From UHGV virus genome UHGV-0196597: a DNA stretch of 30,741 bases; one strand, 5' to 3'. This DNA is from a virus. Below, piece after piece: positions 8,651-28,454 of the stretch. The notes under the pieces are model-generated. The model was not told the DNA's origin. It worked only from the letters and a program-made list of their open reading frames with translations, and did not search any database. The first letter of the stretch is position 1. The number at the start of each line of letters is the position of its first letter. The position numbers and the translations under genes were made by a program.

Positions 8651-8853
8651 CAGTCGGTCAAAAGTTCTTCAACGGTTGTCCCCAGCGCCCTTGCCAGCTT
8701 GAGCGCCGTGGCGGCCTCAATGCCGTCCATTTCCCGCTTGCCGGTTTCCAGCTTAGCGATGTTCGGCTGGCGGGTTCCAATCCTCCGCGCCAGCTCGGCC
8801 TGTGTGAGGCCGGCTGCAATGCGGAACTGCTTGAGTTTGTCGCCTTTATTCAT
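8650..8853 (-). CDS. XRE-family HTH protein (67 aa)
   Basis: LKQFRIAAGLTQAELARRIGTRQPNIAKLETGKR...KLARALGTTVEELL, GAGG RBS. Confidence 0.92.
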   Translation of the reverse strand: MNKGDKLKQFRIAAGLTQAELARRIGTRQPNIAKLETGKREMDGIEAATALKLARALGTTVEELLTD

Positions 8854-9166
8854 CGTCGTCCGCCTCACACGGCGAACTGCTTTGCTTCAAGTACCCATCT
8901 TCGTCCAAGTACTCATCTTCGTCCTGATATTCGCACTTGCTGACTATGCCGCCGACGAACAGGGAGTTCAGGCCGCGCGCTCCGACGTCGTGGAACATTT
9001 TGTAAGTCGGATGCTTCTTGGTGAAGGCCGTCATGATTTCGGCACATTCCTGATATTTCAGGTGGTTGATGCCAAGTGCAAGGGCGCAGTCTCTGATTTT
9101 GATCTCGCGCTGGGTCTCGGCGCGGCGTTCCATTTCGTTAAGGACATCGATTTTGAACTGTTTCAT
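8846..9166 (-). CDS. Hypothetical 106-aa protein with acidic C-terminus (moron gene 1)
   Basis: AGAAAGGA RBS before ATG 9166, own promoter, overlaps the HTH gene by 8 nt. Confidence 0.7.
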   Translation of the reverse strand: MKQFKIDVLNEMERRAETQREIKIRDCALALGINHLKYQECAEIMTAFTKKHPTYKMFHDVGARGLNSLFVGGIVSKCEYQDEDEYLDEDGYLKQSSSPCEADDDE

Positions 9167-26377: not shown

Positions 26378-27511
26378 CTATACCAGATTTTTGATGATTT
26401 CCAGTTCCCTGTCTGACAGTTCCCATTTCTCCGCTGCGGCCTTCTCCGCTGCGGCCTTCTCCGATAAGAGGAATCCCGCACCGAAAAGGGTGTCGCCGGT
26501 TGCTTTCTGGCTATCAAGCGCTCGAATGAAGTGGCAGCTCTCCGGTTTTATCTTCAATTCTTTAAATTTTGCAATCGAGCAGGACGCGACGGAGAGTACG
26601 TTCTGCGGGTAGGAATATTTTCTCCGCTCGACGGTATCTTTACTTTCGTTCACCGCGTCGGTTATTGCCGCATAGAGCGACGGCGACATTTCGATTTTGT
26701 ACTCGCTCAAATTTGTGACAAAGCCGGTGTTGACATATGCGCCGTTCTCGTAGATGACTCTTGCGCAAACCGGAAGAAGGCAACGTCCTTCGACGCTTCC
26801 GTTAGAGAACAACGTGAGCCCAGGAGCAAAAAGGAAATATCGGATGCTTCGTTCTTCGTAGAACGCGCAAATTTGTGACAGGATGGAAAACGGCGGGTTG
26901 TCGATGACGACGCAGCCGGCAGGGTAGTCTTCTTTTTGGTAATCGCCGCCTGGATAGAACGGGCGAATGACCTTCGAGTCTTGAAGGCTGTACCGTTCAA
27001 CCGCCCAGTTGAGGACGGCCTCGTAGACCTTCGGCGGAGTATAGCAATCGTCCGTCGTCAGCTTCGGCTTGAACTTCTCCGTGAATTCCTCGTATTCTGC
27101 GTTTGTCTCTCCGGTTTCGTCTCCCCAAAAATGCTTTGGTTCTTCGTTCGGCACATTCTCAAAATCAAGATCGAAGCCGGTCAGGTCAATGTCCGTCAGC
27201 TCTTCCAGCAGCTTTTCAAAGTCCCAGCCGCTCTCGTTCGTCTTGTTGTCAACCACACGCAAGGCGTTGACTTGCTCCGGCGTGAGGTCGTCCACGCAGA
27301 CGCACGGCACTTCGGCCAGTTTCAGCTTCTTTGCGGCCAGTGCGCGGCAGTGCCCTATGACTATAACACCGTCTCGGTCAATCACTATCGGCTGAACAAA
27401 GCCATACTGCCGGATGCTCTCGGCCACGTTGGCGATCTGCGTCTCGTCGTGCTTTTTCGCGTTTTTCGCATATGGCGTCAGGCTTCTGATTGGTCGGTTT
27501 TCAATATTCAT
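26378..27511 (-). CDS. ParB-like N-terminal domain fused to an amino-MTase-like domain
   Basis: LTPYAKNAKKH...SIRQYGFVQPIVID...IVIGHCRALAA...DNKTNE (ParB/Srx), then DDCYTP...VIDNPPFS (NPPF motif IV). AAGGAG RBS before ATG 27511. Confidence 0.82.
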   Translation of the reverse strand: MNIENRPIRSLTPYAKNAKKHDETQIANVAESIRQYGFVQPIVIDRDGVIVIGHCRALAAKKLKLAEVPCVCVDDLTPEQVNALRVVDNKTNESGWDFEKLLEELTDIDLTGFDLDFENVPNEEPKHFWGDETGETNAEYEEFTEKFKPKLTTDDCYTPPKVYEAVLNWAVERYSLQDSKVIRPFYPGGDYQKEDYPAGCVVIDNPPFSILSQICAFYEERSIRYFLFAPGLTLFSNGSVEGRCLLPVCARVIYENGAYVNTGFVTNLSEYKIEMSPSLYAAITDAVNESKDTVERRKYSYPQNVLSVASCSIAKFKELKIKPESCHFIRALDSQKATGDTLFGAGFLLSEKAAAEKAAAEKWELSDRELEIIKNLV

Positions 27512-27591: not shown

Positions 27592-27631
27592 AAAAAGCGA
27601 CCCAGCCTCCGGCAAGAATAGAGGCTGGGTC
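27592..27631 (-). terminator. Intrinsic terminator between the late promoter and the packaging genes
   Basis: GACCCAGCCTC-(11 nt)-GAGGCTGGGTC-GCTTTTTA, perfect 11-bp stem. Confidence 0.8.
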
Positions 27632-27799
27632 AAAATCAGAAAGGAGGCAGACTATCATGCCGCGGCCTGCCAGCGCGGTGGAGATAGCCGACTACTAAGG
27701 GCGCGGTCGGCACGCGCCTGAGAAAGGACAGCTGCGTTGCGGCGCAGCTCCGATAAAGGAAAGTGGGAAACGGTAGAGCCCCCTGTGTGTTCTTTCCAC
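27592..27799 (-). ncRNA. Candidate ~210-nt structured late-leader RNA with anti-SD motifs
   Basis: Bounded by a promoter and a terminator. Several GC hairpins separated by CUUUCCUUU, UCCUUUCU and CCUCCUUUCU tracts, no credible sense ORF. Confidence 0.55.
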
Positions 27800-27805
27800 A
27801 TTATC

Positions 27806-27849
27806 ATTGTATCACTGATTTCCGTGAATTTCGTCCGGAATTTGTCCGG
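27806..27849 (-). promoter_or_regulatory. Late promoter: extended -10 with activator-type direct repeats replacing the -35
   Basis: Minus strand CCGGACAAATT-CCGGACGAAATT-cacggaaatcag-TGaTACAAT, downstream of the RinA/ArpU-like gene. Confidence 0.75.
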
Positions 27850-28004: not shown

Positions 28005-28454
28005 TCAGATAAAAGTGCTTCCAAACATCGTCCGCGTAAAATCCGTCAGGGCGGCATTGATTTTGTCGTAGACCGCTGATCGCTCGCAGTAGAGTTCCGC
28101 CATCAAAACATCGATGTGGTTCTTCGGCCTGTAGATATAGGCGACTTCAAGCACCCGCCGCTTTTCGTCCCCGATGCCGTCCAGCCCTCGGTCGATGCGC
28201 GTCATCTTCCGCGTCAGGTGGGCGAGCTGCTCCTCGGTCACGGTCTTCTCGTAGATCAGGTTGAGCGCCTGAACTTCGCGGGCGTTCGCGCCGCCCTGCA
28301 CCGGCGTTCCGTCAAACCTCGCCCCTGAGATGGTCGTCTGACGGCTCCGCAGCTCTTCCAGCCGGTCTGCAAGGTTCTTGATCGCCAGCTCGTTGACGTG
28401 ATAGTCAAACAGCTCGGCGCGGGCGGCCTTAACGTAAAAATCGACTGTCTTCAT
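28005..28454 (-). CDS. Late transcriptional activator (RinA/ArpU-like)
   Basis: Coiled coil, PVQGG, then sigma-region-4-like C-terminus (EKRRVLEVAYI...LMAELYCERSAVYDKINAALTDF). Last gene before the packaging module. Confidence 0.82.
   Translation of the reverse strand: MKTVDFYVKAARAELFDYHVNELAIKNLADRLEELRSRQTTISGARFDGTPVQGGANAREVQALNLIYEKTVTEEQLAHLTRKMTRIDRGLDGIGDEKRRVLEVAYIYRPKNHIDVLMAELYCERSAVYDKINAALTDFTRTMFGSTFI

Follow-up and report, generated by a model that had tools for sequence, protein, structure and literature searches.

In the late region of a temperate siphophage, a non-coding leader of about 200 bases lies on the minus strand between the gene of an Ltr-like activator and the first late gene (start 27511). 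Tentatively, this leader can be read as a terminated late RNA in which two tandem pseudoknots are likely nuclease barriers and UCCUUU tracts likely pair with ribosome-binding sites. According to this proposal, the late promoter would produce a short non-coding RNA of ~208 nt ended at a likely leaky terminator, the two pseudoknots would act as nuclease barriers and keep the RNA stable, and the UCCUUU tracts would pair with ribosome-binding sites of the AAAGGA type, a pairing in which the choice of targets would need more than the 6-8 nt core. The parts of this reading differ in strength: transcription and termination of the leader RNA are considered rather probable from the sequence, the barrier function of the modelled knots is about evenly balanced, and the pairing of the tracts to mRNAs in trans, as predicted from complementarity, is somewhat doubtful.

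This reading is supported by the sequence elements of the leader and their 16S-tail match, by a covarying knot family and by a module order conserved among related leaders. Against it stand the late genes of the phage, which pair with the tracts as well as the moron previously proposed as a target, the partial pairing of CU motifs 1 and 2, and the 19 of 28 related leaders without a CU motif.

The predicted late promoter, the leader and its predicted terminator

The window (the whole stretch of DNA analysed, 30,741 nucleotides of the UHGV virus genome UHGV-0196597) holds most of the genome of this phage, the gene content of which was deduced from profile matches and includes a serine recombinase, a Cro/CI-type HTH protein, an SPP1-type portal, a tape measure protein, an M23 endolysin and the terminase large subunit. 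Gene content and relatives point to a host among the Bacillota, and related leaders lie in records of Allofournierella, Gemmiger and Absicoccus. The predicted late transcription activator, an Ltr/ArpU-like protein of 149 aa (28005..28454, minus strand), matched phrog_36 (E 6.7e-14), phrog_248 and DUF1492 (E 9.5e-4, below the Pfam cutoff), a domain that denotes the LtrB class (PMC3753634). Its family comprises 2003 cluster representatives at E 0.001 (alignment A2) with an invariant PVQGG motif, and its predicted structure is all-helical and confident (pLDDT 88). The activator model gave no fold match at E 0.001, either to a solved relative or to a Q antiterminator, there was no sequence match, and a search with the single activator sequence returned no viral loci.

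Three imperfect direct repeats with a CGGA core (27818..27849, minus strand; -50 to -19), with similar repeats in relatives, are predicted to be activator-binding boxes; direct repeats of such kind have been reported as required by Ltr proteins (PMC3753634, accessible part). The family match (with DUF1492 below cutoff), the site before the packaging genes and the direct repeats before the promoter all agree with an activator of the Ltr (RinA/ArpU/DUF1492) type. The repeats are followed by a predicted extended -10 box (TG, TACAAT; 27806..27814, minus strand), the spacing of which to the start is the same in relatives, and transcription is predicted to start at G27799; the promoter scan tool chose the overlapping GATAAT rather than TACAAT as -10. 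The first late gene (26378..27511, minus strand) encodes a ParB-N domain fused to phrog_21498, as assigned by domain and phrog matches, and is followed by a small ORF and the terminase large subunit gene. The spacer between the activator stop and the promoter (28004-27850) is ~150 nt longer than in most relatives, folds weakly (z -1.56) and includes, near 27923-27912, a palindrome of 12 bp, possibly an operator.

The segment 27799-27592 is predicted to be more stable than shuffled sequences (z -3.07; one of 200 shuffles was as good). TCCTTT occurs three times in these 208 nt, matched by 4 of 5000 shuffles, and TCCTTTCT occurs twice, matched by 1 of 5000, both motifs having been picked post hoc. 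A preliminary description had placed in this segment successive GC hairpins separated by linkers with exposed mimics of the 16S rRNA tail; all the strings it quoted are present at the minus-strand coordinates given for them, and the position of the leader between a late promoter and a terminator is supported at the level of sequence prediction. The transcript (minus strand) would begin with a weakly structured 5' domain containing CU motif 1 (27750..27799, motif at 27763-27755), as judged from fold prediction and sequence, followed by hairpin 1 (27730..27749; 7 bp, 6-nt loop), which is predicted at the coordinates originally given and is unchanged in the close relative X1. CU motif 2 (27721..27728), UCCUUUCU, displays 8-nt identity to the 16S 3' tail, a pyrimidine-rich linker of 8 nt (27679..27686) with two substitutions in X1 is predicted to be unpaired, and CU motif 3 (27638..27645), again UCCUUUCU, reaches a match of 10 nt to the 16S tail when the two Cs in the stem are included. 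The anti-Shine-Dalgarno identity was borne out, as CCTCCTTTCT is identical to the 16S tail in two related Bacillota genomes and to the mapped B. subtilis 16S end (PMC5732282). Full exposure of the tracts did not hold: motif 3 is paired in the nested fold and predicted to be open only with pseudoknot B (see below) formed, and in a fold with both knots imposed, the 5' part is predicted to pair with two bases of motif 1 and with the greater part of motif 2. Pseudoknot B uses the CC of motif 3 for its stem 2, which would leave UCCUUUCU exposed and makes UCCUUU(CU) the repeated motif.

An Rfam search, proposed in the preliminary description as a check, gave no family match in the window at the gathering threshold and weak unrelated matches only at E 10, and no tRNA was found in the window. 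Full-length homologues of the element were not found beyond the X1/X2 strain by blastn against phages, in 401 genomes of one order or in 46 loci near relatives of ParB or the activator. A search for the pattern of tract plus terminator (89 matches) was discarded, the matches listed being chance matches.

At the end of the leader, a predicted intrinsic terminator (27592..27632, minus strand; 11-13 bp, long loop, T5) is suggested by an inverted repeat and by the fold. The 11-bp inverted repeat that had been reported is real (27631-27621/27609-27599, loop of 9-11 nt, then T5); the terminator scan tool did not call the site, and in X1 we read a T7 tail with one stem mismatch. Hairpin 1 together with motif 2 also scored as terminator-like. 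As the promoter scan found no further promoter from the terminator to the first late gene, the late genes need read-through, raising the question of how Ltr-driven late transcription gets past a terminator behind its promoter. An 11-mer in the spacer behind the activator (27959-27949, minus strand), locally predicted inside a hairpin of its own, is perfectly complementary to the 5' arm and loop of the terminator (27625-27615) and could antiterminate transcripts from the activator operon; an 8-mer (28004-27997) repeats the terminator base. In staphylococcal phages a terminator has been placed before the mapped late start (PMC3152322, PMC3753634).

Two predicted tandem pseudoknots and a cross-phylum knot family

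In the folding model, what had been described as hairpins 2 and 3 is better read as two tandem H-type pseudoknots. Pseudoknot A (27687..27718, minus strand) consists of S1 of 6 bp (27718-27713/27705-27700), to which the former hairpin 2 corresponds, L1 of 1 nt, S2 of 6 bp (27711-27706/27692-27687), no L2 and L3 of 7 nt. Pseudoknot B (27646..27678, minus strand) consists of S1 of 5 bp (27678-27674/27664-27660), L1 CU, S2 of 7 bp (27671-27665/27652-27646), no L2 and L3 of 7 nt ending in AUA. A group of 40 loci, drawn from DNA collected behind activator relatives, shares with 27676-27646 two short blocks that define a stem unused by the MFE fold. In X1, two substitutions disrupt the former hairpin 3 (27650-27689), an MFE alternative, and in the 73-nt pseudoknot span all four substitutions between X1 and the window fall at positions unpaired in the knot model (P=0.012, a value that rests on four substitutions). 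The two knots, 8 nt apart, are the only pseudoknots of CPK1 geometry (S1 not shorter than 5 bp) in the 30.7 kb, both strands considered, and are not repeats of each other (3 mismatches in a 15-nt core). A looser scan for H-type knots was rejected because sense and antisense came out nearly alike (18 vs 16 of 39). Pair counts from alignment A4 were set aside as well, its rows being hand-picked and one of them (L333) carrying wrong coordinates.

Pseudoknot B belongs to a family of ~27 nt. Its pattern, GCGCTGGCAGRCCGC-N(3-20)-AGTCTGCC, in which the final A of L3 was imposed, matched 26 loci in GTDB genomes of many phyla and at least 120 in IMG/VR, and the family amounts to 147 matches in 55 independent contexts. 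Stem 2 is nearly invariant across phages and genomes of Bacillota, Aquificota, Verrucomicrobiota, Deinococcota, Pseudomonadota and others, and the end of L3 is AUA, AAA or GUA in 47 of the 55 contexts, with only the last A imposed by the pattern. Within the family, stem 2 varies as A-U/G-U only: position 6 is A in 45 contexts and G in 10, both of which pair with U, and the strand of the element is thereby fixed. In a search that imposed a non-consensus base at the centre of stem 1, 17 of the 31 contexts kept complementarity in all three pairs (5% expected), 12 of them with Watson-Crick pairs only (1.6% expected). A metagenome scan for stem 2 gave 50 Watson-Crick cases among 113 and was dominated by GC-rich, apparently coding chance matches, and a family-wide scan gave matches in 7 of 401 genomes, which did not exceed the reversed control. 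Rfam recognized only tRNAs in 20 family loci, the knot B family being uncatalogued there; the near invariance of stem 2 across phyla without an Rfam family suggests an intrinsic property or a universal partner.

Judged from its flanking sequences, the knot B family sits at RNA boundaries. Enough flank was available for 65 of the 71 contexts. In 21 of these a stop codon on the sense strand lies at most 15 nt upstream of the knot, mostly 7-8 nt away, compared with 8 antisense, and in 25 an ATG lies at most 30 nt downstream, compared with 7 antisense. The ten nucleotides behind the copies are rich in U (246 T and 91 G among 710). Besides flanking tRNAs, copies were located between co-oriented genes in the Xanthomonas phage XAJ2 and, in an Aquificales genome, close to the 3' end of tnpB. 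A role as readthrough-stimulating pseudoknot was rejected since the frames are not open past the stop (at least 49 codons in only 5 of 29 contexts, median 19). As separate observations, knot B overlaps the 3' end of IS605-type tnpB genes in several loci (L340, also L319, L326, L328, L342 and L507), just ahead of what we presume to be the start of the guide-RNA scaffold, and there it may mark the 5' end of the guide RNA; in a Faecousia genome three tandem knot B variants lie behind a tRNA-like element (L322:1400-1530).

Related late leaders, which form 28 clusters, are mosaic and contain tRNAs, tRNA-like pieces, CU tracts, knots or a hairpin alone; the tRNAs they carry indicate that the slot is used for RNA cargo. 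A terminator-like site lies between promoter and first gene in 9 of the 14 leaders with a match to the promoter pattern, and many of the other 14, which lack this match, also have such a site by eye. The 28 leaders contain 19 CU motifs (5.9 expected), confined to nine leaders and including some ribosome-binding sites of convergent genes, and seven compact GC-rich knots in five leaders, compared with 0-2 in eight shuffled sets, two of the seven being those of the window. The L247 group (92 loci and 45 variants, close relatives chosen by anchor and knot pattern) displays the order CU tract, GCCGA-type knot, hairpin, knot B and terminator, close to that of the window, with the GCCGA-type knot resembling pseudoknot A and occupying the same rank. 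In this group TCCTT is kept in 89 of the 92 loci and CCTCC in 79; the kept TCCTT core and the excess of CU motifs in related leaders speak for the preliminary description on this point. Three further leader types (L318, L347 and L450) have a CU tract immediately before knot B; CU tracts do not accompany the knot outside Bacillota leaders. The first late gene varies among relatives and the leader modules are shared; in the L247 group this gene carries a motif by which we take it to resemble a metallophosphoesterase. Long structured late leaders with an additional compact knot before the terminator were observed in L239, L240 and L304, with no Rfam match for the leader of L239. The leader of a phage of the L247 group also appears in a record filed as Helicobacter pylori (L337), probably by contamination.

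Possible targets and alternative readings

The preliminary description had proposed the ribosome-binding site of a moron (9182-9172) as a target of motifs 1 and 2. This site is real, and so is the sigmaA-type, near-consensus promoter (9256-9228) of the gene (8846..9166, minus strand), which encodes a protein of 106 aa with an acidic tail and no Pfam match and has a terminator upstream. Its standing as preferred target was lost: when 52 start regions were ranked for each of the three motifs, that of the moron took ranks 21, 13 and 2, late genes score as well, and moron-specific targeting was consequently rejected. The minus strand, which is the sense strand for most genes, contains 21 copies of AGGAGG, so that generic anti-SD masking would hit the genes of the phage itself.

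Almost as likely as the trans-acting RNA, although doubtful in itself, is a cis-acting leader, whose knots and CU tracts would adjust the late operon itself by pausing, by terminator read-through or by shielding the read-through mRNA at its 5' end; the short RNA would then be a by-product. This reading is next in rank because read-through is needed, with no further promoter behind the terminator, and it agrees with the terminator-like score of hairpin 1 plus motif 2, with the U-rich stretch after family members and with the 11-mer complementary to the terminator arm and loop. Against it, the relatives L281, L299, L301, L302 and L220 have a terminator but neither knots nor tracts, so that read-through can do without these modules, the tract lies 5' of the knot in L247, L318 and L347, unlike the tail of a terminator, and the activator model had no Q antiterminator match at E 0.001. 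Clearly less probable is that the modules are relics of a tRNA-carrying leader cassette, shuffled by recombination and functionless now. Mosaic leaders, a window devoid of tRNA and the divergence of X1 (11 differences in ~215 nt of the element vs 5 in the 450-nt activator gene) would be expected from such a history, but the changes in X1 spare the knot stems and the TCCTTT cores.

Two other explanations are improbable to a similar degree. As decoys, UCCUU sites resembling the 16S tail would absorb a host nuclease or another anti-SD-recognising factor and spare the ribosomes late in infection. The conserved core is indeed UCCUU rather than CCUCC (89 vs 79 of 92) and is present in all three motifs of the window; hairpin 1, rejected as a mimic of helix 45, is like it only at chance level (5137/20000). 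According to one report, MazF-mt1 cuts U/CCUU in the 16S anti-SD and ignores UCCUU in mRNAs, context being needed (10.64898/2026.10.23.761202), the first of these properties favouring a decoy and the second opposing it. Alternatively, the tracts would be the complements of ribosome-binding sites of short plus-strand frames, such as one of 13 codons (27657..27698, plus strand) behind the complement of motif 3, ended at a plus-strand terminator-like site (27835-27849). In X1 its start is retained (ATG to GTG) and the other changes are one synonymous and one conservative (I to V), which is equally explained by unpaired positions of the knots. A CAT 4-11 nt before the tract was found in 11 of 31 motifs (12% expected), a count that takes in eight leaders added by hand and three likely real convergent genes and falls to 5 of 19 without them. 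The encoded peptides have no common sequence, the promoter scan found no plus-strand promoter, motifs 1 and 2 lack an AUG at the required spacing, and G-U pairs and loop geometry favour the minus strand.

Relation to known RNAs and significance

The trans-acting reading has parallels in RsaE/RoxS, LhrC, cuckoo and 6C, C-rich, anti-SD-like sRNAs with repeated pyrimidine tracts that, like those of this leader, could pair with ribosome-binding sites; the UCCUUU motif, the location in a phage late leader and the pseudoknot scaffold differ, and no match to the covariance models of these families was obtained with Rfam. Type III antitoxin arrays (ToxI, CptI) and phage pseudo-ToxI are arranged as promoter, tandem pseudoknots, terminator and gene, an order which the leader reproduces. 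It was rejected as an antitoxin RNA of this type on account of knots that are not near-identical repeats, CU-rich linkers and a next gene that encodes a ParB-N fusion and varies among relatives. HDV-like/theta and pistol ribozymes, the catalytic core of which has extra helices, were likewise discarded, the 3' strand of S2 following directly after L3 without extra core helices and no Rfam match being found.

The CPK1 motif is linked to the T-even gene 32 leader. Both knots of the window agree with the definition of this motif given in PMC11262651, namely L1 of 1-2 nt, S2 of 6-7 bp and no loop between the stems; CPK1 is a geometry and not a sequence family, whereas here stem 2, L1 and the end of L3 are conserved in sequence across phyla. 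The coremin xrRNA-C/xrRNA-WCC of plant and other RNA viruses are similar in being small H-type knots with a C-first L1 and an A-rich loop, often a few nt after a stop codon and with further structure downstream (PMC10321173). Their S2 has ~3 bp, compared with 6-7 bp in this phage of bacteria, and the YGAD loop and CUAC spacer are missing here, so membership in the coremin class was rejected. For the downstream structure termed hp2 in coremin elements, the candidates here would be knot B, 8 nt after knot A, and the predicted terminator, ~14 nt after knot B.

The arrangement of the leader resembles that of StxS, a small RNA of Shiga toxin phages that derives from their terminated late transcript PR'-tR' (PMC7547250). 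In both cases a late promoter is followed by a terminator before the first late gene, in this phage as a sequence prediction, and the short RNA upstream of the late genes may act in trans. The present system, known from its sequence, differs from StxS in its Ltr-type activator with direct repeats and without a Q match, its Bacillota-type phage, the tandem pseudoknots and the UCCUUU tracts. No description of knot B or of its pairing with 16S-tail tracts was found in the literature, although subscription journals, motifs shown only in figures and supplements could hold one; the searchable supplementary files of PMC10690425 contained no description of knot B. Hence, as far as Rfam and the literature searched indicate, the knot family and its pairing with 16S-tail tracts are apparently new, and late-leader small RNAs and the CPK1 geometry were already known.

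A broader and more speculative proposal, to which only a low probability is given, is that the late leader of Bacillota phages serves as a slot for nuclease-proof RNA cassettes, in which the cross-phylum mini-pseudoknot would block bacterial exonucleases, as a bacterial xrRNA, and display 16S 3' tail copies, which would either silence host mRNAs or act as decoys for defence nucleases that cut the anti-SD. If the knot blocks RNase J or 3' exonucleases, bacteria would have an equivalent of the viral xrRNAs, and the knot would be a portable element for stabilising RNAs. If the proposed function of the leader unit is true, it would extend the late-promoter small RNAs exemplified by StxS to the Ltr-activated phages of Gram-positive bacteria.
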